Virus record (IMG/VR): IMGVR_UViG_3300028549_003773
Strand: one strand, 5' to 3'
Length of the DNA: 64,000 nt
Source: a virus
Taxonomy: Duplodnaviria > Heunggongvirae > Uroviricota > Caudoviricetes
In this document: positions 1,324-63,293 of the stretch, one piece after another
Numbering within the stretch: position 1 is the stretch's first letter
How the letters are laid out: every line of letters begins with the position of its first letter
The notes under the pieces: generated by a model
What the model was told of the DNA's origin: nothing
The model's database searches: none
Seen by the model: the letters and a program-made list of their open reading frames with translations, nothing else
Position numbers and translations under genes: made by a program

Positions 1324-1330
1324 AAAGTCG

Positions 1331-3899: not shown

Positions 3900-3901
3900 A
3901 A

Positions 3902-3931: not shown

Positions 3932-3957
3932 ATAACAAACTTAATAGGAGGTATAGT

Positions 3958-5703: not shown

Positions 5704-5750
5704 GTGTTCCCTTACTCATATTTAACTAAATCTTTATTAGGAGAAAACGT

Positions 5751-6686: not shown

Positions 6687-7034
6687 GCTACATACACAGC
6701 CGAGCTGTTTAGCCTGTATGTAGAACAGAGTACCGTATCATCCATTATGGGTGGTACGGTACTTCTTTCTTTTTCAAATGGCTTCGCAGGGTAGGACAAC
6801 TGATGTTGCTGGCTATAGGCCTGGTACAGTTTTTTTTTACTCATGCATTAAATGGAGGGATACATGTCGTTAATCAGGGAATGCATTTCATATCACCGAC
6901 TTTTGGGCCTGGCTGCGCTAATTCAGTTACGGGTAATTTTGGGGTTTAGGAGAGGGATCCGCCGCTGAAATTGTCTCCAGACCGGCGATTAATTCATATC
7001 CAGAGATATTTACAGGTGAGTCTTTTGGGGGTGG

Positions 7035-7079
7035 TGTATAGATTAGTACTACTAATAAATATTAAACTAACCTATACAC
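7035..7079. terminator. 13-bp inverted repeat between convergent genes (bidirectional terminator candidate) at the GC-rich/AT-rich boundary
   Basis: gtgtatagattag ...21 nt... ctaacctatacac with one mismatch; lies between the + block ending at 6686 and the - gene ending at 7083. Confidence 0.45.
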
Positions 7080-7082
7080 GTT

Positions 7083-19841: not shown

Positions 19842-20378
19842 ATGTGCACTTCAATAAATGATACTGATGTACTTTTAAAAAGAATGTCCGACTTAGAGGC
19901 GGCTAACCAAGCACTTAAAATGCAACTAAGATCAGCTAAAAAAGAAATATTTGATTTGAAGAAAGGAAAAACTACAACAAACGTTAAACATGTAAAATCA
20001 AGAGGAGGATACGAAAAATTTAAAAAGCTTACCATAGACGAAGTACTACCACATATTGGTGCCGGTGGTAAGCTGTTAGTTGGTATTATTGAAGGAGTAA
20101 AAATATATGTCAATACTTCGAGTGTGAGGTTGCAAACTTTTAAAAAGAACTTAGTGTGTGTAGGTTGTGGCATTCAAGGTCTTTATTTCTGGGCCGAATG
20201 CAATCCTGGATGCTTTAACTATCACCTAAACCTTTATGGAGTTAACGAGGCTGGTGACGAAGTACTAATGACAAGAGATCACATAATACCAAGGTCAAAG
20301 AATGGTGCGGACACTATTGGCAACATGCAAACAATGTGTCATAAATGTAACAATAAAAAAGGCAATAAAATACTTTAA
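19842..20378 (+). CDS. HNH endonuclease
   Basis: DHIIPRSKNGADTIGNMQTMCHKCNNKKG is a canonical HNH motif (D-H...N...H/C-x2-C-N); upstream CVGCG pair gives a Cys4 zinc site. Confidence 0.75.
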   Translation: MCTSINDTDVLLKRMSDLEAANQALKMQLRSAKKEIFDLKKGKTTTNVKHVKSRGGYEKFKKLTIDEVLPHIGAGGKLLVGIIEGVKIYVNTSSVRLQTFKKNLVCVGCGIQGLYFWAECNPGCFNYHLNLYGVNEAGDEVLMTRDHIIPRSKNGADTIGNMQTMCHKCNNKKGNKIL

Positions 20379-24420: not shown

Positions 24421-25137
24421 TTGGTGCTGTTTGGACAGGTGAAAAAAATAAAGGAGAAGGTCATGAGTGTACCTCAAGAAATCGACTTATCAAAATGTAT
24501 TAAAGGTCAAAAACTACAAAGAAGAGACGGTGTTGTAGCTCATTTTGTAAAAACGATAAATTTTGATAATGATTATGATGTGTATATCAGAGCTAACGAT
24601 ATAAAAACAGTCAGTTATAAAAAAGATGGGAGTTATTTAATCTATGGAGAAAAGTCTGAGTTTGATATAGTTAAAATACTTCCTATTGAAACAGATGTTG
24701 AGGTAATGAATAAACAAGACCCAAACCAGAGACAAGGAATGGGCTTTAGCGCAGCTATTGCCGATAAGTACGAATATGCTGCTAAAGACACCAACAGTAA
24801 GTGGTTTGTATATGAAAATAAACCAATTTTAGATAAGGATCGTTGGGTAGTGTCTAAAGGGAATTATGTAGATGTTACTAAATTAATATCTTTTTCAAAT
24901 GTTCCTTGGAAACAATCATTGCATATACGTTTAGGCAAAATTTTTCTGCCTTACTTTGAAAAAGATGAAAAGGTTGAAGTACGTTTTGTAGGAGAAAGCA
25001 GATTTAAACCAGCGCATTTTAGTAATTATACCATTCATGAAGACACACTACTAATCTGGGTATATTCTTCTGGAAGAACATCACATACTTCTTTAGGTTT
25101 AATATTTGTAGAAAAAATAAGACGTTCAAGTAAATAA
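24421..25137 (+). CDS. hypothetical protein
   Basis: 238-aa ORF immediately upstream of rtcB. Confidence 0.5.
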   Translation: MVLFGQVKKIKEKVMSVPQEIDLSKCIKGQKLQRRDGVVAHFVKTINFDNDYDVYIRANDIKTVSYKKDGSYLIYGEKSEFDIVKILPIETDVEVMNKQDPNQRQGMGFSAAIADKYEYAAKDTNSKWFVYENKPILDKDRWVVSKGNYVDVTKLISFSNVPWKQSLHIRLGKIFLPYFEKDEKVEVRFVGESRFKPAHFSNYTIHEDTLLIWVYSSGRTSHTSLGLIFVEKIRRSSK

Positions 25138-25175
25138 ATTTTATAACCAATAATTTGACAAGACTAAATAATACC

Positions 25176-26291
25176 ATGATTTTAAAAATAGAAAAACCGT
25201 GTAATATTTACGCAGAAGTAATTGAATCAGGCGCTTTAGATCAATTTAAAGACGTTATGTCTAAAGATTGGGTATTACGTGGTGCTCTCATGCCTGACGT
25301 TCATCAAGGATACACAATGCCTATAGGAGGTGTAGTTCAAACCTTAGGTATGATAAGCCCTGTTTTTGTGGGATATGATATTGGATGTGGAGTCTGCGCT
25401 CAACTTACCACCTTTAATAAAGAAGAGGTATTTCAACTACGATACAAGTTGAAAGAAAAACTATATAATAACATTCCAGTAGGTCAAAATCATCACAATC
25501 GACCACAAATTTGGAAAGAATATCACACAATTCCTAAAACAGATTGGTATAATAAAATGTTCTGGGAAGACAAAGGGTTACACCAATTAGGCACTCTTGG
25601 TTCTGGTAATCATTTTTTAGAAATAGCTTATGATGAAAAAGATCGTGTATGGGTTACAGTACATTCAGGTTCTCGTCATATAGGGCATTCAACAGCAAGT
25701 TATTATATCCGTTTGGCACATCCTCAAGGAACGTTAGCAGAAGGAGCATATGCTCTTGATGTAACTACTCAAGCAGGCAAGGATTACATTCTTGACCTTA
25801 ATGCCTCATTAGCTTTCGCCCTTGAAAATCGTAAACAAATAGTAACAGCCACAATAGCTACTATCAATCAATTTGTAAAAGGGGAATCAGCAGGAGAATT
25901 AATTAACAGGAATCATAACCACGCCGAATCAAAGGATGGCATTCATTGGATACATCGAAAAGGAGCAACTCATGCCGAAGAAGGTATGATTGGTGTAATT
26001 CCAGGTAATATGAGAGATGGATCTTTTATTGTTATGGGTAAAGGAAATCCAGATTCATTGTTCTCTTCATCCCATGGTGCAGGGAGAGTTTACTCAAGAA
26101 AGAAAGCAAAGACTTTGTTTACTGTAGAAGAAGTCGAGCTAGAGATGGGAGATATTGCTGCAAACATTAATGCTGGTATGCTTGATGAATCTCCTGGTTC
26201 TTATAAAAACATATTTGAAGTGATGGAATTACAGAAAGATTTGGTAGAAATAATTCATCACGTCAAACCTATCATTTGTATAAAAGGATAA
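25176..26291 (+). CDS. rtcB: RtcB-family RNA 3'-phosphate/2',3'-cyclic-phosphate ligase
   Basis: MPDVHQGY, GYDIGCGV, GSGNHFLEI, HSGSRHIGH, NRNHNHAE, HRKGAT and SSSHGAGRVYSR match RtcB active-site motifs; track start 25155 is TTG, first ATG is 25176. Confidence 0.8.
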   Translation: MILKIEKPCNIYAEVIESGALDQFKDVMSKDWVLRGALMPDVHQGYTMPIGGVVQTLGMISPVFVGYDIGCGVCAQLTTFNKEEVFQLRYKLKEKLYNNIPVGQNHHNRPQIWKEYHTIPKTDWYNKMFWEDKGLHQLGTLGSGNHFLEIAYDEKDRVWVTVHSGSRHIGHSTASYYIRLAHPQGTLAEGAYALDVTTQAGKDYILDLNASLAFALENRKQIVTATIATINQFVKGESAGELINRNHNHAESKDGIHWIHRKGATHAEEGMIGVIPGNMRDGSFIVMGKGNPDSLFSSSHGAGRVYSRKKAKTLFTVEEVELEMGDIAANINAGMLDESPGSYKNIFEVMELQKDLVEIIHHVKPIICIKG

Positions 26292-26298
26292 CATTCAA

Positions 26299-26613
26299 AT
26301 GAATTTGCTACCTGTAAAAAGCACTAATATTATTCCTGAAAGTCTAAAAAGTATTACTAAAAATTCATCAGAATTTGATAAGTATAATGCTTTTTTAAAA
26401 GAAGCTTTACAAAGATGTGCTAATTTAGAAACACCTTACGATAGAGTAACTGAAGTACCAATAACACCAGAGGAATTAGAAAAATTTTGTGATGCTGCTG
26501 CTGAATTGGGGCTTCCTGTTACTTATGTTGGGTATAACACTGATGACACTACTGGTTTTTACGCAGGCTATCCTACTTGGGATATGTTAAATGAAGTAGA
26601 AAGTTGTAGATAA
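26299..26613 (+). CDS. hypothetical protein
   Basis: 104-aa ORF. Confidence 0.45.
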   Translation: MNLLPVKSTNIIPESLKSITKNSSEFDKYNAFLKEALQRCANLETPYDRVTEVPITPEELEKFCDAAAELGLPVTYVGYNTDDTTGFYAGYPTWDMLNEVESCR

Positions 26614-26876
26614 AATAATAATATTTTAAATATGCTTGTACAATTATCAAATAAAACTTTAAACGGTAAGAATAAAATCAACACCGCTGCAGTAAAGGGC
26701 GGTGTTGGTATTTGGAAAGTAATAGAAAAACAAGATAATGTATTATTTAGTCAAGAGAAAGGTCCCTGGCTTAAGATAGTTCCTTTAGATAGTAGTAGTA
26801 AAGAATTAAAGTATCTAATGAGATGGGTACATTTAAATAACGACAAAGATTTTGAAGTTATTATTAAGGACTAAAT

Positions 26877-27296
26877 ATGAAAAGTAATCTAACATACGAT
26901 GTTTTACGTTATGACAAACATTTTGGAAAACAACTTATAAATTTTAGCATAAGTTCCAGAATGAATGGTAAATATCAAGCCGTGTCAATGTATTGGCATG
27001 TTGTAAAAAATAAAGATGGTATGTATGGTATTGTTGGTGGAGGTGGTAATAATATAGGAAGTTTTGTTGGTTGGTGTACTGGTCTAACAGGCTGGTGTTT
27101 TAATCCGCTTAATTTAGAAGAATACGTATGGAGCAAAATTAACAACGCCTTCATAACAAAAACCTTCCCATTTTTAAGAGATGTACGTATTATACCTAAC
27201 GAATTTTATTATTATCAAAAAGATAGTAACAATGAGATTATAGAATTTTATACTGAAGAAAATTGTTTTGATAAAGTTATGCTGTGGTGTAAATAG
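26877..27296 (+). CDS. hypothetical protein
   Basis: 139-aa ORF. Confidence 0.45.
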   Translation: MKSNLTYDVLRYDKHFGKQLINFSISSRMNGKYQAVSMYWHVVKNKDGMYGIVGGGGNNIGSFVGWCTGLTGWCFNPLNLEEYVWSKINNAFITKTFPFLRDVRIIPNEFYYYQKDSNNEIIEFYTEENCFDKVMLWCK

Positions 27297-27768
27297 GATG
27301 TGCGCATTAAATAATACAGAATTAGGATTACCGTGTGTGGGTACAGATGACAAATTACATGTGTACTTACCTTTAGAAGACAAAACAAAATGTGGTATAG
27401 ACATAAGAAATAAAAATGTTACACTAAAAGACATTTTAAGTAAATTTTCATGTCACATATGTTCATACTGCACAACAACATAATAAATAAAAATTAAGAG
27501 AGGTTTAAAAATGAAATTCATTCCTGTAAATAATATGTCGAATTTAAAATTGCCAGAAGGATATACTACAGAATTTGATAATACTGGTGATTGTATAAGA
27601 TGTAGTTTTTGCGATGATAATGAAGATTGTGTACATCCAGCTGGAGCATCTAATTGCGGATGTATGCAATACGATGTAGTATTTGTTAAAGAAGGATAGT
27701 TATTACTGTTGCCCATATTAATGTAGTCTTGAAAATTCAGTAATAAAATTTCTAATAAGGGATTAATC

Positions 27769-28164
27769 ATGAGTGATTTTAAAACTGGCGATTTAATTAT
27801 TGTGAGCGACTGGTACCCAGTATTACCTACCAGTACAAGAATGAAGTACCTTTGTACTATTAATAGTACGAAACATCTGTGTGTTTCACCTATGGAATGG
27901 GAAGAAGGAGATTTTAGTAATATTATTGAATACAAATTTATTGACAAACCGCGTACAGTACTCAAAGTACGTAAAGCTTCTGATATAGTTAAGTGGCTTG
28001 AAGATAATGGTTATCGACCTACAATGCGAGGTAGCTGGCTTTCAATGAAAGAACGTCACTTACTATTTGATAAAAGTATGTTCATCGAATGCGGCAAAAA
28101 TTTTGGCGATGTAAAAAATCAAGACTGTTTCATGGATGCTTGGTTAGAAGAAGTAGAGCTTTGA
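27769..28164 (+). CDS. hypothetical protein
   Basis: 131-aa ORF. Confidence 0.45.
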   Translation: MSDFKTGDLIIVSDWYPVLPTSTRMKYLCTINSTKHLCVSPMEWEEGDFSNIIEYKFIDKPRTVLKVRKASDIVKWLEDNGYRPTMRGSWLSMKERHLLFDKSMFIECGKNFGDVKNQDCFMDAWLEEVEL

Positions 28165-28174
28165 CAGGAGAGTT

Positions 28175-28510
28175 ATGGGAGATGGCGCTGATATGGCATT
28201 AGACAATGCCTGGGATGATTGGGAACAAAGAGAAGAGTGGATTAATAAAGGACGTAATCCAGTAGAAGGATATGAATTAGGTATACTTAATGAGCTTGGT
28301 GGAGAAGAAGCCGATTCAAGATTACCTTCAAGGTCAAAAAAATCCCTTTATACAAAAACAGATAAGCGAAAGGCTACCAGTGTTGAATGTAAATATTGTG
28401 GTAAGAAAAACTTGAATTGGCAGAATATTAGAGGTAAATGGCGCTTGTATGATGAAAAAATTATGCATATGTGTGCAAATTACAACAAGATCAATTATGA
28501 AAAAAATTAG
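28175..28510 (+). CDS. hypothetical protein with C-terminal zinc-ribbon-like CxxC...HMC
   Basis: CKYCGKK...HMCANY. Confidence 0.45.
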   Translation: MGDGADMALDNAWDDWEQREEWINKGRNPVEGYELGILNELGGEEADSRLPSRSKKSLYTKTDKRKATSVECKYCGKKNLNWQNIRGKWRLYDEKIMHMCANYNKINYEKN

Positions 28511-29357
28511 TTTAATATTATTATTATTATTATTATTTATTTTTTGCTTATTCTTTACAAGTTGTATGTTTCTACCTTTCAACAAGATGATGAGGGCCCC
28601 TCATGCTAATTATGGCTCTTGTGCTGAATGTCATAGTACAATATTTTTATTAAAAAACGCAGAGTCTAAGAATTAATTATTTACAAAGGAGTAAAGTATG
28701 GAAGAAGATATTAGTAATTATTTTGACATTTTCGAAGAATTTTCTCAAGAATTAATTGATGAATGTAGAGATGATTGCGGAAACGCCGAAAAAGAAATTG
28801 AATGGAGTTACATTTAAGGAGTATTTATGAAAGAAGAAAAATCTTTGTTACAAACATACGTATGGTTATTTATAGATTGGGTAAAAACTTTTCTATATTT
28901 TATTCCAATAATTAGTAAAAGAACACCTGAGATTTGTGCGGACTTGTATACATACCATAAACATTGGTTGGGTGTACAGGTAGGTATAAGAAAAGAACGT
29001 GCTTTAAAAAGAAAAACTAAAGTGTATTAAATTATGAAAGAAGAAAAAGTAATAAGTGCTGATGTTATATGCTACAAAGTAACATATACCCTATGGGGCA
29101 GAATATATGAACAAGAAATGGATATTGCTATTTCCGATTATAAAGATAAAACCACTGAAGCAAGGTTAAAAAATGATTTCGAAGAAGCAATATACGTTAT
29201 GAATTCTGAGTATATAGCAGAAGAAGTACCAAAAGAAGTGCAAAACCCTATTAAAATAGATTCTTACATTAGAATAACTAACAAGGGAGAAGCGCTTCAG
29301 TAATTCTGTATATATTTAGATATCTGTAAATACATATGAATTTAGCAGTTGGTGCTT

Positions 29358-29415
29358 GGTGGTGGGGCTTGGGGAGTAGTGGTACTGGCTTTTTGGGCTG
29401 GTGCTTTCTACTCAT
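29358..29415 (+). promoter_or_regulatory. GC-rich ~50-bp element containing TAGTGGTAC (instance 7); near-identical copy at 35052
   Basis: ggtggggcttggggagTAGTGGTACtggctttttgggctggtgc; a GC island in an AT-rich intergenic region. Confidence 0.45.
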
Positions 29416-29559
29416 TTATATAATATTATCCTTAGGGTAGTATAAATGGAAGTAAAAAGAAAATTTTGTACATTCAAAAAGAATGCAGTAGACATCTGTC
29501 TTGTGTTACTTTTATCTATCTATTTTGTAATACTCAAATTCAAATATCTATTAAAACTA

Positions 29560-29870
29560 TGAAAAAATCAAAAAAGTTTGGTGGCACTATAAAGGATTGG
29601 CAGATACACACATTAAGTGTAACAAAAGAATGGCTTGATACAGTATGCACAGAAAAAGGTCTCCAACCTATGATATTAACAGGCACGGTTGTTGAGGATA
29701 AATTAGGTAGATGGCTGCCTGGTTTTCATATGAGGTCAACATTAATTAAAAAGATAGATAGAGAAAAAGGAGAAGTTGAAACTCAAAATACTATCTATAA
29801 GCTTGAAGGTAAAGAAGGTGGTGATATCTTTAAAGATTTAGGAGATAATGTATTTAAAATATTTTATTAA
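29560..29870 (+). CDS. hypothetical protein
   Basis: likely start MKKSKKFGG inside track ORF 29466..29870. Confidence 0.45.
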
Positions 29871-30147
29871 GTATAAATAAAAGTATTTAAATAACATTAT
29901 GTGAGAATACAAATGAGTACAGATGACGACACACTAATTATACACAATGTTGATCTTAATTTATTAGAAAATCAACGGCGACAATTTAATAATATGCTTA
30001 GTATGGACAAGATTATGGGTTTTATGTCAATTAAGCAAAGAGAATCATTAGTTGGTCTTGGGAATATGTTAGACAAATGGTCAGATGATAAGTATTTTCA
30101 AAAGCAAACTAAGAGAGATTAATAAAATTATATAAGGAATTGACATC

Positions 30148-30861
30148 ATGTCTTTACATGTCTGTGGTGACACACATTGTCCTAGGGATATCCATAAATT
30201 GAATACCACAGAATGGCCAGAGCAAAGATCGCTAAATAAAAATGATATACTTGTTATATTAGGTGATTGTGGCTTGATATGGGATCCTGATTGGTCAAGA
30301 GAAGAATTGCATTGGGCTAATTGGCTTGCTAACAAAAAATTTACAGTTTGTTTTATTGATGGTAATCACGAAAATTTCGCAAGATTAAATAAATTTGGTA
30401 CAGTTCCTTTTTACGGAGGAACTGCAGGAGTTGTGTTTGAAAATGAAAATGGTGTAGTATATCATCTAAAAAGAGGAGAAGTATACACCATTGAAAACAA
30501 AACAATATTTACCTTCGGGGGTGCTCAATCCACTGATAAAGAACGTAGAATTATTGGACGTAGTTGGTGGCCTGAGGAAGTTCCAAACTTCGCAGAAATT
30601 AATCATGGATTAGAAAATCTAGAAAAACATCACAATTGTGTTGATTTTATATTAACACATACTGCACCAACAAGTATTATTACTCACTTTAATTTTATAG
30701 ACGCAGCTATGAGAATTGATGATCCTACTTCTAGATTTTTAGAAGAAGTGGATAAAATTACACAATTTAAACAGTGGCATTTCGGCCATTTCCACACCAG
30801 CCAGCATAAAGACATGAAATATATTTGTCATTATAACTGGTATCCCTATAAATTATTTTAA
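30148..30861 (+). CDS. calcineurin-like metallophosphoesterase
   Basis: GDCGLIWD (GDxxDRG-like) and CFIDGNHENF (GNHE) motifs. Confidence 0.7.
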   Translation: MSLHVCGDTHCPRDIHKLNTTEWPEQRSLNKNDILVILGDCGLIWDPDWSREELHWANWLANKKFTVCFIDGNHENFARLNKFGTVPFYGGTAGVVFENENGVVYHLKRGEVYTIENKTIFTFGGAQSTDKERRIIGRSWWPEEVPNFAEINHGLENLEKHHNCVDFILTHTAPTSIITHFNFIDAAMRIDDPTSRFLEEVDKITQFKQWHFGHFHTSQHKDMKYICHYNWYPYKLF

Positions 30862-30869
30862 GGATCTTC

Positions 30870-31388
30870 ATGAAAACAAATTATAGAAAGTATCTTTCCG
30901 AACTTGATGAGTCTTTTCTTGAACAATGTGGTCTTACACGTAACTCTACTGTAGATGAAATTATAAGTAAACTTCAATGGAGTACTTACGGTCCAAATGC
31001 CGATACCAAAAAATTCAAATGGATAAAACTTCGTGACTGCACATCTGTACATTTACGTAAGATAAGAGCGTTACCCGATGTTTATAAGATTCATATGATT
31101 GCCATTGATATAATTTTAAGTATACGTCAATTAAAAACCAGATCAAATGCTCTGGTAGGTACTAATTGGTGTCGTAATGAACCTTATGACCCGGCAAAAG
31201 GGCCCTATAATACCTATACAGTACTTTTTGTAACGAATACGGATAATATACATAAAAAGCACGCATGCCAAGTAGTTTATTATGGAGATAACGGCAGACA
31301 CTGGAGTTTACCCCTTAGTAAATGGCCTGGAAATTTAGTACAAATAGATTATAAGACCGCTAACAAATTAAAAAATAAAAGTAAATAA
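30870..31388 (+). CDS. hypothetical protein
   Basis: 172-aa ORF. Confidence 0.45.
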   Translation: MKTNYRKYLSELDESFLEQCGLTRNSTVDEIISKLQWSTYGPNADTKKFKWIKLRDCTSVHLRKIRALPDVYKIHMIAIDIILSIRQLKTRSNALVGTNWCRNEPYDPAKGPYNTYTVLFVTNTDNIHKKHACQVVYYGDNGRHWSLPLSKWPGNLVQIDYKTANKLKNKSK

Positions 31389-31396
31389 GGAAGACT

Positions 31397-31588
31397 ATGC
31401 AAAAGTTTTTAAAGGTGTACAGTAGTGTAATTATATTAGTAGTACTTGCAGTATTTTTATTCGGGTTCGTAATACCTGTGCTAATATCAGCTAAAAGTAC
31501 TGAATTAGTTGTATTGGGTTTTTTGGCGGTGCTGGTATCAGTACCATTTTATATTTTGAGTATTTATAAAATTTATAAAGGAATTTAA
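31397..31588 (+). CDS. small two-TM membrane protein (NfeD-like partner?)
   Basis: 63 aa with two hydrophobic helices, directly upstream of the SPFH gene. Confidence 0.45.
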   Translation: MQKFLKVYSSVIILVVLAVFLFGFVIPVLISAKSTELVVLGFLAVLVSVPFYILSIYKIYKGI

Positions 31589-31592
31589 AAAA

Positions 31593-32444
31593 ATGAAATT
31601 TATGAAAAACTTTGTTTTTGTTGTATTGGCCCTTTTGATGACCTCAGCATGTTCTAAAGTTCCTGCTGGTTATGTTGGTATTAAAGTATACCTCCTTGGA
31701 GGAGAAAAGGGTGTAGAATCTGAGCAACTAGGAGTAGGTAGATACTATATTGGTATGAATGAGGATTTGTTCTTGTTTCCAACATTTACACAAAACGCTG
31801 TATGGACAGCCGATAAACGTGAAGGTAGCCCAGACGACGAATCTATTACCTTTCAAACAGTAGAAGGTATGAGCGTAAATGCTGACATCGGCATTTCTTA
31901 TGCCGTTATTCCTGACAAAGTGCCTATGATTTTTCAAAAATATAGGAAACAAATTGACGAAATTACAGATATTTATTTACGCAACATGGTTAGAGATGCT
32001 TTTGTAGCTATTGCAGCTTCTCAGCCTATTGAAAACGTGTATGGCGCTGGAAAAGCCGAATTGTTGAAACAAGTAGAGGAATCTGTGAGAAAGCAATGTG
32101 GAGATATGTTTATCATTGAACGTATTTATTTGATTTCTGACCTAAGACTTCCTAACGAAGTAGTAACCTCTATTAATAAGAAATTGGAAGCTACACAAAA
32201 AGCTCAGCAACGAGAAAATGAGGTTAGAGAAGCGAAGGCAGAAGCAGAAAAAGTAGTAGCCAAAGCCGAAGGAGAGGCGCGATCAATTGCTGTAGTAGCA
32301 GAAGCACAAGCTAAGGCAAACATAACGATAGCTAAATCAGTAACGCCTGAGCTTATTTCTTACAACGCAATCAAAACTTGGAATGGGCAACTACCTACTA
32401 CGATGATACCAGGAAGTGCCGTACCTTTTGTAAATGTTAAATAA
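31593..32444 (+). CDS. SPFH/band-7 (prohibitin/HflC-like) lipoprotein
   Basis: signal peptide plus lipobox LMTSAC; EAKAEAEKVVAKAEGEARSIAVVAEAQAKAN is a typical SPFH C-terminal coiled-coil. Confidence 0.65.
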   Translation: MKFMKNFVFVVLALLMTSACSKVPAGYVGIKVYLLGGEKGVESEQLGVGRYYIGMNEDLFLFPTFTQNAVWTADKREGSPDDESITFQTVEGMSVNADIGISYAVIPDKVPMIFQKYRKQIDEITDIYLRNMVRDAFVAIAASQPIENVYGAGKAELLKQVEESVRKQCGDMFIIERIYLISDLRLPNEVVTSINKKLEATQKAQQRENEVREAKAEAEKVVAKAEGEARSIAVVAEAQAKANITIAKSVTPELISYNAIKTWNGQLPTTMIPGSAVPFVNVK

Positions 32445-32839
32445 GTAATTTGAAACCTACTACCTCTTTTCAAGGGGGTAGTAGGTACAACGCAAAGAGG
32501 AGAAGCAGCGAAAGCAGGGCTTTTAGTGTTCGGTGGCCACCCCACTAAGTAGATTCGATTACTACCTCTTCTGAATAATAAACTAAAGGTAATACATGGA
32601 GAATAAACCTATTTGTTTTGATAAATACATTTGTTTACCAATGCCACATAACCCACCAATGCAAGATCTATTTTACAGACTACAATCTGTAGGAGATCTA
32701 AGCTTTAATAAATTTAGTAAAGGTTATAAAATATCTTTAGTACGATATGAAGATTCAATAACTATGACTGAAATTGTAGATACTTTTTATACTGGTCTTT
32801 ATAGACTATGGAGAAGAGTACAAATAATAAGGAAGCAAA

Positions 32840-34171
32840 ATGAATGAATTAGAACTTTTAATCATCGACCGATTAGCTAACAACAATTTCGAAGTTTTCC
32901 TTGTAGGTGGTGCCGTAAGAGATAAAATTCTAGGACTACCCTATGAAGATATAGATTTTGCTACAAATGCTCGTCCTGAGCAAATCATCAATCTTTTTCC
33001 AGACAAACACATAGGTGTTGTAGGTAAAAGTTTCAAAGTAGTATATGTAGAAGGTGTTCAAATTGCTACTTATCGTAAGGATATTCAAAAAAAATTCTTC
33101 AGTGCTAAATATTGTGAACCAGTATACGCAGATAGTATATACGAAGATTTATGTCGTAGAGATTTGACTATCAACGCAATGGCAATCAACGCAATAACAA
33201 AAGAATTCATCGACACGCAGAATGGGGAAGTTGACTTACGTAATGGTGTTATACGTCTTGTAGGAGATCCTATTCAACGACTATGGCAAGATCCTAATAG
33301 GATAGTTAGAGCGTGCAGATTTGTAGCCAAAACAGAAGGGCATTTTCATAGGAAAACCTATGTTGCCTTATGTGAGTGTGCAGTATTTATTAAACGTCAC
33401 GTAGAGGCTGAAAGAATTCAAGAAGAGATAATGAAAGCTATGAAAGTTAATACACCTTCAATATTTTTTAGTTCACTACAATCAATTGGTGCTTTAAAAT
33501 ATATATTCCCAGCTATGGCTCGTTCTTTTGAACAAACAGGTGGTGAGTTTCATAAAGAGACAGTAGGTGAGCATTTGATGCTTGCTGGCGATGGAATACA
33601 TAAAAAATTTCCTGTGTTAAGACTAGCAGCTTTTCTTCATGACATTGGTAAACCAAAAGCTTTTCTTAAAGAAGATGATGGTAGTTTTAAAGCTCATGAA
33701 GCATACGGTGCCAAAATAGCTAAAAAGTATCTTACTGATTTGAAATTCCCTTCGGCAGTGATAAATGAAGTACATGGCCTTATTAATTCACACATGAGGA
33801 TCTGTAGAGGTTTAACACCTAAAGGTATAAGGAGACTACGTAAGCACTTATCTGACGATGGTGTCGATCCTCGCAGCTTTTTGAGGTTAAAACTCGCAGA
33901 TAGGTCAGCAAACTTGTATAGGTCTAGCACAGAGATTCAACCGACAAAAGAGTTAATAATTAATGCAGGTATCAGGTCAGTAGAAGACCCTGTGTTAACA
34001 TTAAAAGACTTAGCCATATCGGGTGGAGATTTAATAAAAGAATTTAATCTACAGCCAGGACCAATTGTTGGTAAAATACACAAAGCTTTGCTTGAGTTTA
34101 TAATAGAAGAAGGTGAAGAGTATAACACTTATCAAATTTTAAAAGATCAAGCCTATAAATTATTAGTTTAA
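32840..34171 (+). CDS. cca: tRNA nucleotidyltransferase (CCA-adding enzyme) with HD phosphohydrolase domain
   Basis: LVGGAVRDKILGLPYEDIDFAT is the Pol-beta head motif; DLTINAMA; HD-domain residues FLHDIGKP ... HEAYGAKIA. Confidence 0.8.
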   Translation: MNELELLIIDRLANNNFEVFLVGGAVRDKILGLPYEDIDFATNARPEQIINLFPDKHIGVVGKSFKVVYVEGVQIATYRKDIQKKFFSAKYCEPVYADSIYEDLCRRDLTINAMAINAITKEFIDTQNGEVDLRNGVIRLVGDPIQRLWQDPNRIVRACRFVAKTEGHFHRKTYVALCECAVFIKRHVEAERIQEEIMKAMKVNTPSIFFSSLQSIGALKYIFPAMARSFEQTGGEFHKETVGEHLMLAGDGIHKKFPVLRLAAFLHDIGKPKAFLKEDDGSFKAHEAYGAKIAKKYLTDLKFPSAVINEVHGLINSHMRICRGLTPKGIRRLRKHLSDDGVDPRSFLRLKLADRSANLYRSSTEIQPTKELIINAGIRSVEDPVLTLKDLAISGGDLIKEFNLQPGPIVGKIHKALLEFIIEEGEEYNTYQILKDQAYKLLV

Positions 34172-34521
34172 ATATACATTAGAAGGATGAAGATGGAACT
34201 TGACACAAGAACATTGAACGAAGCACAATTTGCAACCTTTCAAAATTTTTTGCGAGACTCGGTATCTAAAACATTACATAATTTAGTTACTATATTTGTT
34301 CTCAAAGTTTTGTATGATAAAGCACCAGAGAAAGAACAAGAGATGTTCAAAAATTTTCTAAACACGGCAGTAGATGAAGTTAAAAAAATTCACACCTTAA
34401 AAGCTGCCACTCATTACGATCTTTCTGATAAGCAGAAAGAACTTTTCGAAGAAGATATGAATGAGGTTATAAATAATTGTTTAGACCCAGTAACAAATAT
34501 ACGTAATAAGGAGTAATCTTT

Positions 34522-35040
34522 ATGGTAAATTTTTATTTTAGTGCGGATTGGCATGTCGGACATGATAATATTATAAAATACTCACGTAGACCTTTTAATA
34601 ATGTCGATGAAATGGATCACGCATTAATAACTCGTCATAACGAAGTAGTAACAAACAACGATGTACATGTACATGTTGGTGATTTTACTCTAAAGAATAA
34701 AGATTACGCTACAAGTATTATTAAACAATTAAACGGTCAACAAGTTTTTATAATTGGAAGTCATGATAAATGGCTGAATGATAAAGGAAAACAAATATGG
34801 GAAAAGACAATAGACAATCAAAAGATTGTTTGTTGTCATTACCCAATGTATAGCTGGCCAGAGTCTCACTATGGAAGTTGGCTTCTATACGGACATCATC
34901 ATGGTAGACTAGCAGTTCAATGTAAGGCTATTGATGTTGGTGTAGATACTAATAATTTCTATCCTTATTCATTCGAACAAATAAAAAGTATTATGGAAAG
35001 TAAGCCAGTAACTCCTGGAACGATAACTAAGAAATATTAA
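34522..35040 (+). CDS. calcineurin-like metallophosphoesterase (small, Mre11/Pnkp-phosphatase-like)
   Basis: SADWHVGHD, HVHVGDF, GSHD and GHHH motifs. Confidence 0.7.
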   Translation: MVNFYFSADWHVGHDNIIKYSRRPFNNVDEMDHALITRHNEVVTNNDVHVHVGDFTLKNKDYATSIIKQLNGQQVFIIGSHDKWLNDKGKQIWEKTIDNQKIVCCHYPMYSWPESHYGSWLLYGHHHGRLAVQCKAIDVGVDTNNFYPYSFEQIKSIMESKPVTPGTITKKY

Positions 35041-35051
35041 ATATGATTTTT

Positions 35052-35110
35052 TGGGTGGGGCTTGGGGAGTAGTGGTACTGGCTTTTGGGGCTGGTGCTGG
35101 TGCTGGGTCT
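35052..35110 (+). promoter_or_regulatory. GC-rich ~55-bp element with TAGTGGTAC (instance 8), paralog of 29358
   Basis: tgggtggggcttggggagTAGTGGTACtggcttttggggctggtgctggtgctgggtc; 65 bp upstream of the ATG at 35141. Confidence 0.45.
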
Positions 35111-35140
35111 AAAAACTAAAAAATAAATATTACTAAAATT

Positions 35141-35911
35141 ATGAAAAATAAATTACTTTTACCAAACGAAACAAATTTGATGTATGGTACTTCGCCTTTT
35201 AATATGCAATATGCTTTTGTAGAAAAAGAAGGTGATAATTACAGAATGTGTCATTCATTTAATACATGCAAAGATTACATGCATGAAATTATAGCAAATA
35301 GTATACATAATGAATGTTGCTTTGCCGGTGGGACTGGATTAATGGGTAAAAATCTGGACACTCTGCAAATTGTTTTACTTTTTAACAAGTTATCTGATGA
35401 GGATAAAGAAAATCTATACAGTATAAAAAAGTATATTAGCAACATAGAAGTAAAACACAAATTTCCTAAAACACTAATAAAAGAAATAGATTGCTCTGAA
35501 ATATTGAAAGAGCATAGAACATTCTTGTTGACTTTCAAAAAGCATTATGTGGAATCACCCGTTTTACTACATATGTTTATTGCTATGGTACGAACTTTAA
35601 TATTACTTAAGACAAAAATAGATGGTAAAAATATAATTAAATCTTTAGAAAGTCGTAGCGAAAAAGATAGTTCTATATTAAGACACGCATTAAAACACAA
35701 TGTTATAGATTTACTATTTAAAGAGCATGATACTATAACAAAAGATTTAACTAGTAAGGAAATTTACCCCAAAGAAGATCAAAATGGCTTCAGTTATCAT
35801 AGCGGTTTTGGTTTAGTAGCATTATTATCAAGAAGATTATCTTCAAAAGCTTACTCTGATAACGCATACAAAGTATTAGATAAGCACGGTATACCAAATT
35901 TTAATTATTAA
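35141..35911 (+). CDS. hypothetical protein
   Basis: 256-aa ORF. Confidence 0.5.
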   Translation: MKNKLLLPNETNLMYGTSPFNMQYAFVEKEGDNYRMCHSFNTCKDYMHEIIANSIHNECCFAGGTGLMGKNLDTLQIVLLFNKLSDEDKENLYSIKKYISNIEVKHKFPKTLIKEIDCSEILKEHRTFLLTFKKHYVESPVLLHMFIAMVRTLILLKTKIDGKNIIKSLESRSEKDSSILRHALKHNVIDLLFKEHDTITKDLTSKEIYPKEDQNGFSYHSGFGLVALLSRRLSSKAYSDNAYKVLDKHGIPNFNY

Positions 35912-37843: not shown

Positions 37844-39420
37844 TTACAAAATCTGCAGTAAAAATAGAAACATTTAAAGCTAAAGATCATTTAGCAGAAA
37901 TTTACGGAAGCCCTCAAATGACTTTTTCTTTCTTGTCAGCTCCAAAAGAAGGTAATAAGCAATGTTGTCTTCCGGTAAGATGCAGAGACTTTTTACAAGA
38001 TGCTATTAGAGCAACTTTAACAAAAAAGCCAGCTTCGATATATGGTTTTAAGTTTGATTATGAAAAGAATCCAAAGCTTGACATTTTAAGAACACGTATG
38101 TTGATTAACATACCGAAAGAAAGAACAGTACTAAAAACGGCAGATAAAATTATTGAAGACGGTTTAAAACTTATTCATTATTACGAAAATTTGGCTGGTA
38201 TAGTAACAAAAACTACTGTAAAAAGCAATGAAGAAGGTTACGTAGTAGTTGGTAGTAACTTTTGGATGTTTTCACCTGCTGTAATATCATTATACACGTT
38301 ACTGTTTAGATTGGGCGAGTATGATCTAAAATTTGAAACAGATAAAGATGACTTAGTAAAAGCATATGAATCTCTAGTAAATAAAAAAGAAACATATTCA
38401 GATTATGCCATAGAGTACCTAAGAGAAGTTTATAAAGTCTTGGAAGATTTTGTAAGATACTATAAACTTTCCATAGATGGGAAAAAATTTGATAATATAT
38501 ACTATGAAGATATCCCAATACGTAGCTTTCATGGTAATTCAGGTATTGTTTCTTTTTGTAATACAAATAAAGACGGTTTGTATAAAGAACAGTATGCAAA
38601 ATTCAAAGATTACATTGAAACTTCTATCAATGTACCAAGTATAGTATTTCCATATGGTGGTTTTGCGTATGTAACAACTCATTATGCTTCTAACAACTTA
38701 TACTTCGGATTGTTAAATGCTGAGGATAAGATTGTAACTGAAAGTTTAGATTCATGCAGAGAAGTAGTGTGTAGTAGATACAGATACCACTTAACTAAGA
38801 ATAAAGGTTTGACAAAAACAAAGTTGTTGGTTACAGCTTCAGGCATTTTAGATATTCCAACTAGAATTAAAAATTTTAAAGAAAAAATATTTTTTGCTAA
38901 AAGATTTGTCAACCATTTTGAAAAACAAGCTAATATACCATTGTCTAAAATATCATTGGTGTTTTTAAAAAGTAATAGTAGTAAAATTAAACAATTTTCA
39001 GCAATATTAACAGGAGATGCTGCGTGGGTTAGTAGTCCTGTAATGTTATCTACTTATATATTTTTGTTAAGAGTATCTTTTAAGACTTACGAAAAATTTG
39101 AAAATAAAGATAATATAACAGATGAAAATATAGCCAAGGCTTTTGATATTGATGTAAAACCAGGACTTTACAAAGTAGTAATAAGTGATCAAGCTATTTT
39201 TAAAGGTTATATAGATCAAATAAAGTTATTAATGGTAGAACGAAAAACTTTGTTCTTGAGTAAAGAACCAGCTATAAACTTTTTGACTCATGCTGATAAT
39301 GTGCCTATGAATAGCAGTAAAGTAGGAGTAGTTTCTTTACTTAAGAAAACAACAATAGATAAAACATTACTAAATAAATACGAGGAGTTGTTAAAAACAT
39401 GTCAAACAGGAGCACAATAG
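37840..39420 (+). CDS. hypothetical protein (526 aa)
   Basis: large ORF, start/stop-coupled to both neighbours; no motif recognised. Confidence 0.55.
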   Translation: MITKSAVKIETFKAKDHLAEIYGSPQMTFSFLSAPKEGNKQCCLPVRCRDFLQDAIRATLTKKPASIYGFKFDYEKNPKLDILRTRMLINIPKERTVLKTADKIIEDGLKLIHYYENLAGIVTKTTVKSNEEGYVVVGSNFWMFSPAVISLYTLLFRLGEYDLKFETDKDDLVKAYESLVNKKETYSDYAIEYLREVYKVLEDFVRYYKLSIDGKKFDNIYYEDIPIRSFHGNSGIVSFCNTNKDGLYKEQYAKFKDYIETSINVPSIVFPYGGFAYVTTHYASNNLYFGLLNAEDKIVTESLDSCREVVCSRYRYHLTKNKGLTKTKLLVTASGILDIPTRIKNFKEKIFFAKRFVNHFEKQANIPLSKISLVFLKSNSSKIKQFSAILTGDAAWVSSPVMLSTYIFLLRVSFKTYEKFENKDNITDENIAKAFDIDVKPGLYKVVISDQAIFKGYIDQIKLLMVERKTLFLSKEPAINFLTHADNVPMNSSKVGVVSLLKKTTIDKTLLNKYEELLKTCQTGAQ

Positions 39421-40310
39421 GTACCGATCCAGAATTTTTTGTAAGAAATAAAGAAGATGGTAAATTTGTAAATGCGGAAACAATGTTTCCAGGAACAAAA
39501 GAGAATCCTCATCTAATGAAAAGTGGTGCTGGACTACAAACCGACAATGTAGCAGTCGAATTTGCAAGCCCTGTAGGAAAAGATGGTAAAGATTTAGTTA
39601 AAAAATTAAGAAAAACATTTAAAGAATTGTTTTTGATTCTTCCTAAAGATAAAATATTGGATCTTTCACCATCGGTGTTATTTCCAGAAGATGAGTTGCA
39701 GACAGAGCAAGCACAATTGTTTGGGTGTTCCCCAAGTTATTGTGCATGGGATTTGGTAGAAAATGAAAAACCTAATGCAAAATTCAGTAACCTTAGAAGT
39801 ATAGGTGCCCATATCCATATTGGTAAATGCGATGGTGATGGTAATGACTTTCTATTGGACCCGTATGGTAAGATAGACACTGTAAGGATGTGCGACTGCT
39901 TGCATGGTATAATAAGCGTAATTTTAGACTCTTCAAAAGAAAGTGTAATGAGAAGAGAATTGTACGGTAAAGCTGGAGAGCATAGACCAAAAGAATATGG
40001 TGTTGAATATAGAACATTGTCACCGTTTTGGATGAAGAGTCCGAATCTGGTAATGCTTATAGACTCATTAACTATGGATGCATTACGATTGGTTAGAGAA
40101 GGAAAAAACAGTGACTTAATAGATGAAATTGGTGGCGCTGATGTTATACGTAATATCATAAATAATGGTGATATAAAATCAGCCGAAACAGTAATAGACA
40201 ATATATTAGTAAAATATATGTCTAAAGACTCAAAGTACTTTTTTGAAGAGTGTAGATCAGCTATTGATACTTATTCTTTCACAGAAGAGTGGCAAATAGC
40301 CACTAAATAA
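39399..40310 (+). CDS. amidoligase, glutamine-synthetase/GCS2-fold carboxylate-amine ligase (copy 1)
   Basis: N-terminal IGTDPEFFVRN resembles the G-x-E-E-E-F-x-L-V-D signature of YbdK/GCS2 ligases; central GAHIHIG; same two landmarks recur in three paralogs downstream. Confidence 0.6.
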   Translation: MSNRSTIGTDPEFFVRNKEDGKFVNAETMFPGTKENPHLMKSGAGLQTDNVAVEFASPVGKDGKDLVKKLRKTFKELFLILPKDKILDLSPSVLFPEDELQTEQAQLFGCSPSYCAWDLVENEKPNAKFSNLRSIGAHIHIGKCDGDGNDFLLDPYGKIDTVRMCDCLHGIISVILDSSKESVMRRELYGKAGEHRPKEYGVEYRTLSPFWMKSPNLVMLIDSLTMDALRLVREGKNSDLIDEIGGADVIRNIINNGDIKSAETVIDNILVKYMSKDSKYFFEECRSAIDTYSFTEEWQIATK

Positions 40311-40338: not shown

Positions 40339-41121
40339 ATGAAAATTGCAGTACCTATTTTTAGTGGTGACACAAGACTGTCTATTAATACGGCCTATTT
40401 GAACTATGTAAAATCGGCTAATATGGAGCCAATTCTTGTAAATGAGTTTAATAATCTACAAGAAATTGCGCAAGTTTGTGATGGTTTGCTACTACCAGGT
40501 GGAATTGATATTGAACCTACTTGGTATGGTGAAGAGAACGAAGCAAGTGACGGTTGTGACCCTGAAAGAGATGATTTTGAGCGAGCTGTTTTTCATGCTT
40601 TTATAAATAATGAAAAAAAGGTATTCGGAATTTGTAGGGGCTTCCAATTAATGGTAAGAGAATTTCTTAATGAGTACAAAGATGGCTGCAAAGGTTTATA
40701 TTATTGTCAGCATATCAACGGTCATTCATTGGCTTCTTCAAGAAATGCTCGAAGGAGTACACCGACACATAGCGTAAGTATAGTAACTAAAGCACTATAC
40801 AATATTCCAGCTGTTGAAGGAAAAAAGAGTAGTAGAATGTTTGTAAATTCTATGCACCACCAAGCTTTGCTTGCAGAACCACACAGATTTTCGTTTGTTA
40901 TACAGCAAAATGAAGCAAGTTTTCATTGCATTGCCGCCAGTGATGCAGGCATCAGCAAAGAAATGAATATGGCAGTTGTAGAAGCGGCTGACATGATGTT
41001 TCATGGTGTTACTGTAAGAGGTGTTCAGTGGCATCCTGAAGAACTACTTGATGTTGCTCTGCTAACTAATTACTTTACTGGAGCAGTTGCCGATGGAGCC
41101 AAAATCAAGTTACACAGGTAA
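40339..41121 (+). CDS. class-I glutamine amidotransferase-like / gamma-glutamyl hydrolase (C26 peptidase) family
   Basis: LLLPGGIDIEP, GICRGFQLM (nucleophile Cys), VQWHPEE (His-Glu dyad). Confidence 0.7.
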   Translation: MKIAVPIFSGDTRLSINTAYLNYVKSANMEPILVNEFNNLQEIAQVCDGLLLPGGIDIEPTWYGEENEASDGCDPERDDFERAVFHAFINNEKKVFGICRGFQLMVREFLNEYKDGCKGLYYCQHINGHSLASSRNARRSTPTHSVSIVTKALYNIPAVEGKKSSRMFVNSMHHQALLAEPHRFSFVIQQNEASFHCIAASDAGISKEMNMAVVEAADMMFHGVTVRGVQWHPEELLDVALLTNYFTGAVADGAKIKLHR

Positions 41122-41971: not shown

Positions 41972-42652
41972 ATGAAAAAACTTATTTTGTTAGTAGCTGG
42001 ATATGGTTATGAGAAACCTTTTAAACAAATGGGTGAATTAGTAGAAGACATCGATTTGTTTATGCAATCGCCTGAAAAGTTCAAACTTGTTGTATTTACC
42101 GGTGGAGAAGATGTACACCCGGCAATGTATGGTCATACTTCACCAAAAGGTCTTTGTTATTTTAATGCGGCAAGGGATGTAAAAGAGCAAATAATTTATG
42201 AATTTGCTAAAGATAACAATATACCAATGACAGGTATCTGTAGAGGAAGTCAATTCCTAAATGTAATGGCCGGTGGTACATTAATGCACCATATAGATCA
42301 TCATGGAACAATGCATTATATTGAAACAATCGATGGTACAGTTATGAAAGTTACTTCAACACATCATCAAATGTGTGTGCCAGCAGAAGATGGCTTTGTT
42401 GTAGCTTGGTCTGAAACTAAAAGATCTGAAAGATATTTTGGCGATAAAGATGCTGAAGTAGCTTACGATGGTAAAGAAGTAGAGGCTATTTATTATCCCG
42501 ACAAGAAAATTTTCGCCGTACAATACCACCCGGAATACATGGATGATAAAAGTATGGGACTTACATGGTATAAGCAAGCTGTTCATGACCTGGTACATTC
42601 TACAACTGCTGAATTTAAGCGTAAGTATTTCAAACAGCAGATGGTAAAATAA
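41972..42652 (+). CDS. class-I glutamine amidotransferase-like / gamma-glutamyl hydrolase (second copy)
   Basis: VVFTGGEDVHP, TGICRGSQFLNV, VQYHPEYM. Confidence 0.7.
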   Translation: MKKLILLVAGYGYEKPFKQMGELVEDIDLFMQSPEKFKLVVFTGGEDVHPAMYGHTSPKGLCYFNAARDVKEQIIYEFAKDNNIPMTGICRGSQFLNVMAGGTLMHHIDHHGTMHYIETIDGTVMKVTSTHHQMCVPAEDGFVVAWSETKRSERYFGDKDAEVAYDGKEVEAIYYPDKKIFAVQYHPEYMDDKSMGLTWYKQAVHDLVHSTTAEFKRKYFKQQMVK

Positions 42653-63210: not shown

Positions 63211-63293
63211 GCAAGAGTGGTGGAAATGGCAATACACGAAGGTCTTAGAAGCCTTTGCTTAAATGATTGAGGGTTCGATTCCCTCCTCTTGTA
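63211..63293 (+). tRNA. tRNA-like gene (possible type-II tRNA, anticodon read as TAG/Leu but uncertain)
   Basis: canonical T-arm GAGGG-TTCGATT-CCCTC; 7-bp acceptor GCAAGAG/CTCTTGT with discriminator A; 3-bp D-stem GTG/CAC with a GG-containing loop; anticodon stem AAGGT/GCCTT with loop CTTAGAA; 13-nt variable region that does not fold cleanly. Confidence 0.45.

Follow-up and report, generated by a model that had tools for sequence, protein, structure and literature searches.

Candidate tRNA-repair enzymes and two recurrent metallophosphoesterase families in an uncultured phage

The DNA considered here, a stretch of 64,000 nucleotides (nt) from an uncultured phage of the Caudoviricetes (IMG/VR record IMGVR_UViG_3300028549_003773; hereafter the window), encodes an RNA ligase of the RtcB family, a class-II transfer RNA (tRNA) nucleotidyltransferase of the CCA-adding type with an HD phosphohydrolase domain (CCA/HD), and two small metallophosphoesterases, which we call MPP1 and MPP2. 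With a probability of roughly 55% we read them as a phage set of RNA-end enzymes that keeps tRNAs chargeable under host attack. At the level of the protein families, the assignment of RtcB and CCA/HD to a putative tRNA-repair function is supported, and on balance the stretch appears to be part of an early or auxiliary gene block of the phage, with enzymes acting on RNA ends. A preliminary description, made from the letters of the window alone, had named the same four genes; all four open reading frames (ORFs) are present on the plus strand, their positions and identities were borne out, and for RtcB, CCA/HD and MPP1 profile searches (Pfam, PHROG) agree with the assignment.

The RtcB gene (25176..26291, +), whose family comprises RNA 3'-phosphate/2',3'-cyclic-phosphate ligases, encodes 371 amino acids (aa) and starts with an ATG at 25176, an alternative in-frame TTG lying upstream at 25155. 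Its product matches Pfam PF01139 over profile positions 2-426 of 426 (E = 4.4e-85, 286.9 bits vs a cutoff of 27) and phrog_1075 with E = 2e-104. The active-site Cys, His and Asn residues were looked for in an alignment to the P. horikoshii enzyme (PhoRtcB) and are all present: D41, H43, D68, C71, N145, H146, E149, H163, H247, H300 and K370 correspond, in the same order, to D65, H67, D95, C98, N202, H203, E206, H234, H329, H404 and K480, so that the metal ligands, the GMP-accepting His and the guanine-binding Glu and Lys are all kept. Across 19 phage RtcBs the catalytic residues are invariant or nearly so. Judged by its sequence the protein is an RtcB, but a member of neither curated bacterial subfamily, as it scores below the cutoffs of NF007153 (166 bits vs 407) and of the PrfH-coupled TIGR03073 (130 vs 272). 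It is catalytically complete in sequence and, by family, would seal 2',3'-cyclic-phosphate or 3'-phosphate ends to a 5'-OH in a GTP/Mn-dependent reaction. RtcB joins such ends directly, with no prior end healing; a phosphoesterase is therefore superfluous for it, and one that removed 3'-phosphates would take away what it ligates. The gene in the window is uninterrupted. Some phage RtcB genes in IMG/VR consist of two ORFs separated by about 1 kb (loci L017, L019 and L208) or are about 720 codons long (L273), which suggests intein, intron or homing-endonuclease insertions.

The second enzyme with a recognizable RNA-end function, CCA/HD (32840..34171, +, 443 aa), contains in this order a PolyA_pol head (Pfam E = 4.4e-27; 95 bits vs a cutoff of 23), an RNA-binding domain (PolyA_pol_RNAbd, 2.6e-7), an HD domain (2.8e-9) and a C-terminal tRNA_NucTran2_2 segment (1.2e-9). 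The catalytic Asp pair of the head domain was looked for and found as D37-I-D39 (DxD), accompanied by GGAVRD at 23-28 and by motif B, RRDLTINA, at 106-113 (RRD at 106-108). Nucleotidyltransferase motif D reads QDPNR (150-154; window 33287-33301) where EDxxR is canonical, with Asp and Arg kept and Glu replaced by Gln. The metal ligands of the HD domain are complete (H245, H267-D268, H286, H318 and D354), and the domain scores above the cutoffs of Pfam HD (37.7 bits vs 22) and of the HDIG model TIGR00277 (37.4 vs 27.6). Judged from these features, membership in the class-II nucleotidyltransferase family is secure, and CCA-adding specificity is presumptive. A tRNA-like gene noted earlier at 63211 proved to be a tRNA-Leu(UAG) (63211..63293, +; ARAGORN; Rfam RF00005, 50.9 bits) and is the only tRNA in the window. 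The preliminary description overstated its link to the repair genes: it lies 28 kb away from them, and its discriminator A is followed by AATAAT, so that the 3' CCA is not encoded and the CCA enzyme could have the housekeeping task of maturing the phage tRNA, in addition to repair or in its place. Loci with a CCA gene seem not to be enriched for tRNA genes, 2 of 14 (not dereplicated) having any, and tRNA density showed no clear trend around CCA or RtcB loci. The motif TGTAGTACTA, repeated upstream of the tRNA gene, is not enriched in the window.

MPP1 (30148..30861, +, 237 aa), a stand-alone metallophosphoesterase, matches Pfam Metallophos (2e-9, 38.6 bits vs a cutoff of 21.5) and phrog_1649 (2.6e-30). 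All five canonical metallophosphoesterase motifs (DxH, GD, GNH[DE], H and GHxH) are present and invariant across 34 homologues, the fold also fits the superfamily, and a WWPEE motif serves as a signature specific to the family. By fold its nearest relatives are Dbr1, PptH and MPPED2, and its structural neighbours include the cyclic-nucleotide/diester hydrolases MPPED2, Rv0805 and GpdQ besides the 2'-5' phosphodiesterase Dbr1; a BFVD fold search returned only generically named metallophosphatases. MPP2 (34522..35040, +, 172 aa) belongs to the aq_1665/phrog_547 family and has the calcineurin-like motifs and fold, except that the metal-binding Asn of motif III is Ser family-wide (G-S-H-D in place of GNH[DE]). 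Its nearest relative by fold, Aquifex aq_1665, is of uncharacterised function and keeps the Asn. Both proteins look like generic, small, binuclear phosphoesterases that are uncharacterised. Their earlier comparison with the Pnkp phosphatase domain does not hold: in neither protein did we find the closest structural or sequence affinity to an end-healing phosphatase of the Pnkp or lambda-phosphatase type, or an association with a polynucleotide kinase, and RtcB needs no such phosphatase. What stands of the proposed tRNA-repair kit are RtcB and CCA/HD as intact members of RNA-end-repair families, and the recurrence of subsets of the four genes; the idea of phosphoesterases in the service of RtcB found no support.

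The window has the aspect of phage DNA, with tightly packed genes almost all on the plus strand and a G+C content of about 31%, like the source contig (~85 kb, 31% G+C). The phage has been met in metagenomes only (JGI, and Logan run SRR21758068). The four genes are dispersed over 10 kb of a single co-directional block and do not form a compact operon. RtcB and MPP1 are 3.9 kb apart, with 13 small ORFs between them, none of which could be assigned to a family except a DUF6957 protein (29466..29870, +; PF22275 among the precomputed Pfam matches) upstream of MPP1. MPP1 is followed by a 172-aa ORF (30870..31388, +), a small membrane protein and an SPFH/Band-7 protein, after which come an 83-aa ORF overlapping the start of the CCA gene, CCA/HD itself, a 109-aa ORF (34187..34516, +) and MPP2. 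Gaps between genes are mostly below 30 nt, and RtcB and CCA/HD are separated by 6.5 kb. Neither the 172-aa ORF (no credible match in Pfam or PHROG) nor the 109-aa ORF (none in Pfam, PHROG or NCBIfam) could be placed in a family. The term 'module', under which the genes had been introduced, calls for a reservation, as they are not contiguous, the 13 small ORFs and the SPFH pair being interspersed. This pair (window 31397-32444, between MPP1 and CCA/HD) consists of the membrane protein (phrog_1130) and the SPFH protein (phrog_200, annotated 'lipoprotein'). It is not found at the corresponding position in the relatives described below; SPFH homologues occur near RtcB and metallophosphoesterases in a gut-phage cluster (L061, in the order MPP1-RtcB-SPFH) and in Enterococcus phage EFP01.

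No nucleotide-level relative of positions 25000-35200 was found among 50,697 phage records (megablast). At the protein level, homologues were found in 691 phage records for RtcB (best identity 51%), 503 for the CCA enzyme (38%, in Desulfovibrio phage 7757), 183 for MPP1 (41%) and 1,489 for MPP2 (39%). Two metagenomic relatives of 228 and 264 kb are syntenic with the window from about 26.6 to 40.3 kb. With a wider flank included, the 264-kb relative (L361) shows the order RtcB, small ORFs, DUF6957, MPP1, a DNA_ligase_A_M protein, CCA/HD, a 116-aa ORF and MPP2, with identities to the window of 49% for RtcB, 60% for MPP1, 73% for CCA/HD (71-73% in the relatives) and 70% for MPP2. The four-gene order is kept here and in the 228-kb relative (L042/L198), with other genes in between; where the window has SPFH, for example, L361 has an ion channel, NMT1_3 and DUF2491. 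CCA/HD, the 109-aa ORF and MPP2 remain contiguous. In the loci L035 and L042 the DUF6957 protein is kept upstream of MPP1 with 60-62% identity, ORFs 45% identical to the 172-aa ORF directly follow MPP1, and counterparts of the 109-aa ORF occupy the equal position with 28-29% identity. The four genes are retained in order across considerable divergence. As a separate observation, the ligase-domain protein of L361 (13903-15027, 374 aa) lies immediately upstream of CCA/HD, where the window has SPFH and the 83-aa ORF. PF01068, the adenylation domain of ATP-dependent ligases, was recognized in it, an OB domain was not, and its substrate could be either DNA or RNA ends.

The same families come together in unrelated phages, in varying order and always on one strand. 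Single-sequence queries of viral contigs yielded only 0 (CCA) and 3 (MPP1) loci, and alignment-based queries were needed. In Desulfovibrio phage 7757 the CCA gene, MPP1 and RtcB follow each other within 9 kb on one strand, and on another contig (L279) they are found in the order CCA...MPP1-Thg1-RtcB, again on one strand, with Thg1 recognized by Pfam at 6e-30. Thg1 is a tRNA 5'-end repair enzyme. This Thg1-family gene (tRNA-His guanylyltransferase-like, a 3'-5' polymerase; 10988-11821) sits on a 75.7-kb contig binned as Melioribacteraceae, which probably stems from a phage equipped more completely for tRNA-end repair. In L085 the CCA gene directly abuts MPP1, with MPP2 4 kb further on the same strand. 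Elsewhere MPP1 adjoins MPP2 (L313 and L338, and L349, where RtcB...MPP2-MPP1 lie on one strand) or RtcB (L178), or the genes follow as MPP2...RtcB...MPP1 (L093 and L208) or RtcB...MPP1 (L041). Among cultured Herelleviridae, RtcB and MPP2 are 3.5-10 kb apart; Listeria phage cka11 (P100-like) has them at 3.5 kb, and Enterococcus phage EFP01 combines SPFH, two MPP2 paralogues, a NinI-like phosphatase and RtcB within 16 kb. RtcB is also among the top neighbour families of bacterial or metagenome-assembled MPP1 loci (3 of 46, mostly Bacillota).

Co-occurrence was counted within +-10 kb after dereplication at 70% identity, SPFH serving as an informal control. MPP1-centred clusters (n = 39) contained MPP2 in 13 cases, CCA in 4, RtcB in 2 and SPFH in 2; for the 79 RtcB-centred clusters the numbers were 10 for MPP2, 4 for CCA, 2 for MPP1 and 3 for SPFH, and around MPP2 (62 clusters) MPP1 occurred in 7, CCA and RtcB in 3 each and SPFH in 1. 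When neighbouring ORFs were clustered without prior labels and only the top families annotated, MPP2 came first among the neighbour families of RtcB and likewise of MPP1, in a clustering at blastp level that favours compact conserved families such as MPP2. The other neighbours of RtcB were RecA, DNA ligase, NAPRTase, DnaB, SNF2, RNA ligase, PolA, CCA, clamp loader and RlaP, those of MPP1 were NADAR, dUTPase, a small-alarmone-hydrolase-like HD_4 protein, CCA and RNA ligase. The MPP1-MPP2 link is strong, and the contexts of MPP1 are RNA repair and NAD or nucleotide conflict. MPP2 is ambiguous between RNA-repair or conflict contexts and DNA metabolism, and RtcB and CCA are linked weakly at the local level (about 5%), yet genuinely in several lineages.

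In the mechanism that we propose, RtcB would reseal RNAs, most plausibly tRNA anticodon loops, that were cut by metal-independent nucleases, and the CCA enzyme would rebuild the 3' CCA of tRNAs, after its HD domain had possibly cleared a blocked 3' end. Together they would keep tRNA chargeable after cleavage in the anticodon loop or at the acceptor end by host toxins or abortive-infection nucleases, and the phage's own tRNA-Leu, encoded without CCA, would be completed by the CCA enzyme as well. For MPP1, binuclear and active-looking, a place in the same counter-defence toolkit for RNA ends or nucleotides is most likely, because its gene neighbours across many phages are MPP2, NADAR, the HD_4 protein, CCA, RNA ligase, RtcB and Thg1. 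Our best guess for its substrate would be a 3'-blocking phosphate or cyclic phosphate on RNA, removed ahead of the CCA enzyme or an ATP-dependent ligase and not ahead of RtcB; since the CCA enzyme and ATP-dependent ligases need a 3'-OH, they are the logical clients if the phosphoesterases act on RNA ends. The reaction of MPP1, and perhaps of MPP2, may be the removal of blocking phosphates from RNA 3' ends or the hydrolysis of immune signals of the nucleotide type. MPP2 is frequently accompanied by MPP1, directly adjacent in several lineages, and by RtcB; its role here is the least certain, because it is equally at home in DNA-replication modules.

Several observations weigh against reading the genes as one counter-defence set. 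They lie scattered over 10 kb among ORFans, and scans for promoter and terminator consensus sequences stayed at shuffle level and said nothing about operon structure. Most co-occurrence rates are low (3-13%, compared with 2-5% for the informal SPFH control) and uncorrected for phylogeny. The CCA enzyme remains below all NCBIfam equivalog cutoffs (best tRNA_CCA_actino, TIGR02692, with 192 bits vs 439; PcnB 151 vs 306), and together with the QDxxR form of motif D this leaves CCA addition presumptive, with A addition or poly(A) synthesis as alternatives. RtcB works without phosphoesterases, and a 3'-phosphatase would compete with it. Finally, the top neighbours of MPP2 itself are RecA, dCMP deaminase, MPP1, DNA methylase and PolA. 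In cultured Herelleviridae it occupies replication/recombination modules, as in Bacillus phage Riley, where it is located between a helicase and SbcCD-like exonucleases. We nevertheless consider it distinctly unlikely that the genes form no functional unit at all and merely came to lie together by chance in a large, co-directional, frequently exchanged accessory block, their synteny reflecting common descent. The thirteen unrelated small ORFans and the SPFH pair among them would fit such a block, as would pairwise co-occurrences of mostly a few percent, similar to SPFH, and the relatives share many other genes over 26.6-40.3 kb, so that a kept order is expected by descent. Yet at least eight unrelated lineages have members of the four families close together, in differing selections and orders and in several cases directly adjacent, MPP2 is present in 13 of the 39 MPP1-centred clusters and first in both neighbour lists, and the relatives have kept all four although their intervening genes were exchanged. 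It is likewise unlikely, if less so, that the enzymes serve housekeeping and not counter-defence, the CCA enzyme mainly maturing phage tRNA(s), RtcB acting on other RNA such as ribosomal RNA (as PrfH-coupled RtcB2 does), messenger or phage RNA or in a splicing-like event, and the four genes not sharing one pathway. The CCA-less tRNA-Leu(UAG) gene speaks for this possibility, the scores of RtcB below both curated subfamily cutoffs allow for more than one substrate class, RtcB repair of damaged ribosomes is documented (PMC9304027), and RtcB and CCA/HD, 6.5 kb apart in the window, are close to each other in only ~5% of dereplicated loci. A host with CCA-less tRNA genes, however, already has an essential CCA enzyme, and a phage copy suggests an extra demand, for example damage; the intact HD domain points to blocked-end repair, CCA loci seem not to be enriched for tRNA genes, and CCA...MPP1-Thg1-RtcB in L279 is a repair-type context.

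For the phosphoesterases the balance is closer. That they are unrelated to RNA repair, and degrade immune signals or nucleotides (cyclic oligonucleotides, 2',3'-cyclic nucleoside monophosphates, ADP-ribose derivatives or alarmones) or, in the case of MPP2, take part in DNA or nucleotide metabolism, merely sharing the early accessory region with the tRNA enzymes, is a serious possibility that we hold to be somewhat short of an even chance. It agrees with the structural neighbours of MPP1 (MPPED2, Rv0805, GpdQ and Dbr1), with the NAD/nucleotide conflict genes near MPP1 (NADAR, the HD_4 protein and dUTPase) and RtcB (NAPRTase), and with the DNA-metabolism neighbours of MPP2 and its replication-module place in phage Riley. 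Furthermore, with MPP2 in 1,489 phage records vs 691 for RtcB, most MPP2 phages cannot owe MPP2 to RtcB, and some calcineurin-like phage phosphodiesterases are predicted to counter nucleotide signals (PMC7824862). It fits poorly with the CCA gene abutting MPP1 (L085), with MPP1 followed by Thg1 and RtcB (L279) or adjoining RtcB (L178), with MPP2 as the single most frequent neighbour family of RtcB, and with the contiguity of CCA/HD, the 109-aa ORF and MPP2 in the relatives. At the other extreme, MPP1 and MPP2 might be a dedicated 'deblocking' pair for RNA 3' ends, which with CCA/HD (and elsewhere Thg1 or RtcB) forms an acceptor-end tRNA repair pathway; we regard this as a long shot. The pair would strip a 2',3'-cyclic phosphate, a 3'-phosphate or the 3'-pyrophosphate that toxins of the toxSAS/CapRel type add, so that the CCA tail can be rebuilt. 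If true, it would assign a function to phrog_547, a family found in ~1,500 genomes of cultured phages, among them therapeutic phages of Staphylococcus, Listeria, Enterococcus and Pseudomonas.

Phage RtcB and CCA genes are widely annotated and have already been read as counter-measures to tRNA-cleaving immunity, and the instance in the window adds little to this. The useful lead is that two uncharacterised phosphoesterase families are repeatedly neighbours, both of each other and of RtcB, CCA, Thg1 and RNA-ligase genes, and that MPP2 is very common in cultured lytic phages including therapy candidates. Whether their substrates are RNA ends, nucleotide signals or DNA bears on a possible, so far unrecognised end-deblocking step in phage tRNA repair.

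Further repair and defence genes were looked for in the window. The ORFs scanned, with some small ORFs outside the scan, contained no ATP-grasp RNA ligase (Rnl, with Rnl1/Rnl2), polynucleotide kinase (PNK), RtcA, archease, RlaP, PTH2, Thg1, NADAR, 2H or KptA, and those with Pfam data contained no RtcA cyclase, RtcR or archease. No Ro/Y RNA was detected (ORFs scanned, Rfam). PADLOC reported no defence-system match in the window, the only similarity being a weak one of the HD domain to the Cas3 HD domain (E about 5e-4).

A number of features elsewhere in the window are recorded here independently of the four genes. The G+C content drops from 38-45% in the first ~8 kb (1-7500) to 26-37% over the rest (8000-64000), a step at which the structural region may give way to the early one, or at which parts of a mosaic may meet; for a 470-aa ORF before the step, tblastn against 50,697 phage records gave no homologue. 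The suggestion of a Bacteroidota host, derived from a missing Shine-Dalgarno (SD) sequence upstream of RtcB, was rejected, as an SD-like 4-mer precedes 40 of 82 ORFs vs 10% of random positions. An HNH endonuclease (precomputed Pfam matches of the identical Logan contig) is encoded at 19842-20378. Between 39399 and 60461 extends an amidoligase-type gene cluster with four COOH-NH2 ligase ORFs (PF14395/phrog_3815; 39399-40310, 50669-51772, 57633-58931 and a weaker one), Peptidase_C26/GATase ORFs (40339-41121 and 41972-42652), a GATase_6 protein (55784-57640), a RimK-like ATP-grasp protein (58936-60003), a GNAT protein (60027-60461) and several large interspersed ORFs that match no family; its product could be a modified metabolite, a peptide tag or a DNA hypermodification. 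The 1087-aa product of the ORF at 45074-48337 resembles RNA polymerase beta / Rpb2 domain 6 weakly and below the threshold (Pfam 20.8 bits vs 23.4; phrog_3295 8e-7), has no tblastn match in the 50,697 phage records, and may represent an RNA polymerase subunit of the phage that has diverged strongly. A RuvB-like AAA+ ATPase with RuvB_N, AAA_lid_4 and RuvB_C domains is found at 61165-62148.

Compared with known systems, the classic T4 pair Pnkp and Rnl1, which repairs tRNA-Lys cleaved by PrrC, shares the logic that a phage enzyme reseals a host-cleaved tRNA. T4 first heals the ends with 3'-phosphatase and 5'-kinase activities and then employs an ATP-dependent ligase, whereas RtcB seals directly. 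The claim that the genes of the window are more elaborate than the T4 pair was therefore not upheld: with neither a kinase nor an ATP-grasp RNA ligase in the ORFs scanned, they represent a different, simpler sealing route, an alternative and not an elaboration. Bacterial Pnkp/Hen1 (C. thermocellum Pnkp phosphatase domain, 4j6o) and lambda phosphatase share with MPP1 and MPP2 the superfamily of binuclear metallophosphoesterases, and Pnkp/Hen1 provides a precedent for such an enzyme acting on RNA 2',3'-cyclic-phosphate and 3'-phosphate ends; the region itself is neither a Pnkp/Hen1 system nor a Pnk+Rnl system of the T4 type. The bacterial rtcBA operon with RtcR has an RtcB with identical catalytic residues, but differs in RtcA, RtcR and archease, which the window ORFs with Pfam data do not include, and in the position of the window RtcB below the curated subfamily cutoffs. 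E. coli Cca (PRK10885) and the actinobacterial-type enzymes (TIGR02692) resemble CCA/HD in the class-II head and the HD domain with its intact H..HD..H..D pattern. The HD domain of E. coli Cca was reportedly found by Yakunin and co-workers in 2004 to be a 2',3'-cyclic phosphodiesterase, nucleotidase and phosphatase. CCA/HD is unlike these enzymes in motif D and in its C-terminal tRNA_NucTran2_2 segment, and lies far below their equivalog cutoffs (118 bits vs 451 for E. coli-type Cca, 192 vs 439 for TIGR02692).

The accessory region of Herelleviridae such as cka11 and EFP01 resembles the window in holding RtcB, one or two phosphoesterases of the MPP2 family and an SPFH 'lipoprotein' within 4-16 kb on one strand; it differs in that no CCA enzyme or MPP1 was detected there, and it has no DNA similarity to the window. 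Closest in composition are the phage kits of RtcB, CCA-adding enzyme, calcineurin-like and HD phosphatases and tRNAs described by Iyer, Anantharaman, Krishnan, Burroughs and Aravind (Viruses 2021, PMC7824862, section 3.4.9). That survey reads them as countering host attacks on tRNA, places them in early or host-manipulation regions and has the phosphoesterases track ATP-grasp ligases, not RtcB; a survey of NAD/ADP-ribose (ADPr) systems (PMC9503650) puts NADAR and related genes into such early regions as well. The work of Iyer et al. concerns jumbo phages, whereas the window derives from a contig of ~85 kb, though its relatives reach 228-264 kb, and Rnl1/Rnl2, PNK, RlaP, 2H, KptA and PTH2 were not found in the window ORFs scanned. 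The composition has already been described for phages, and the window holds a familiar kind of kit and not a new system; the new lead, a modest one, lies in the uncharacterised MPP1 and MPP2, which recur as a pair beside enzymes of tRNA ends.

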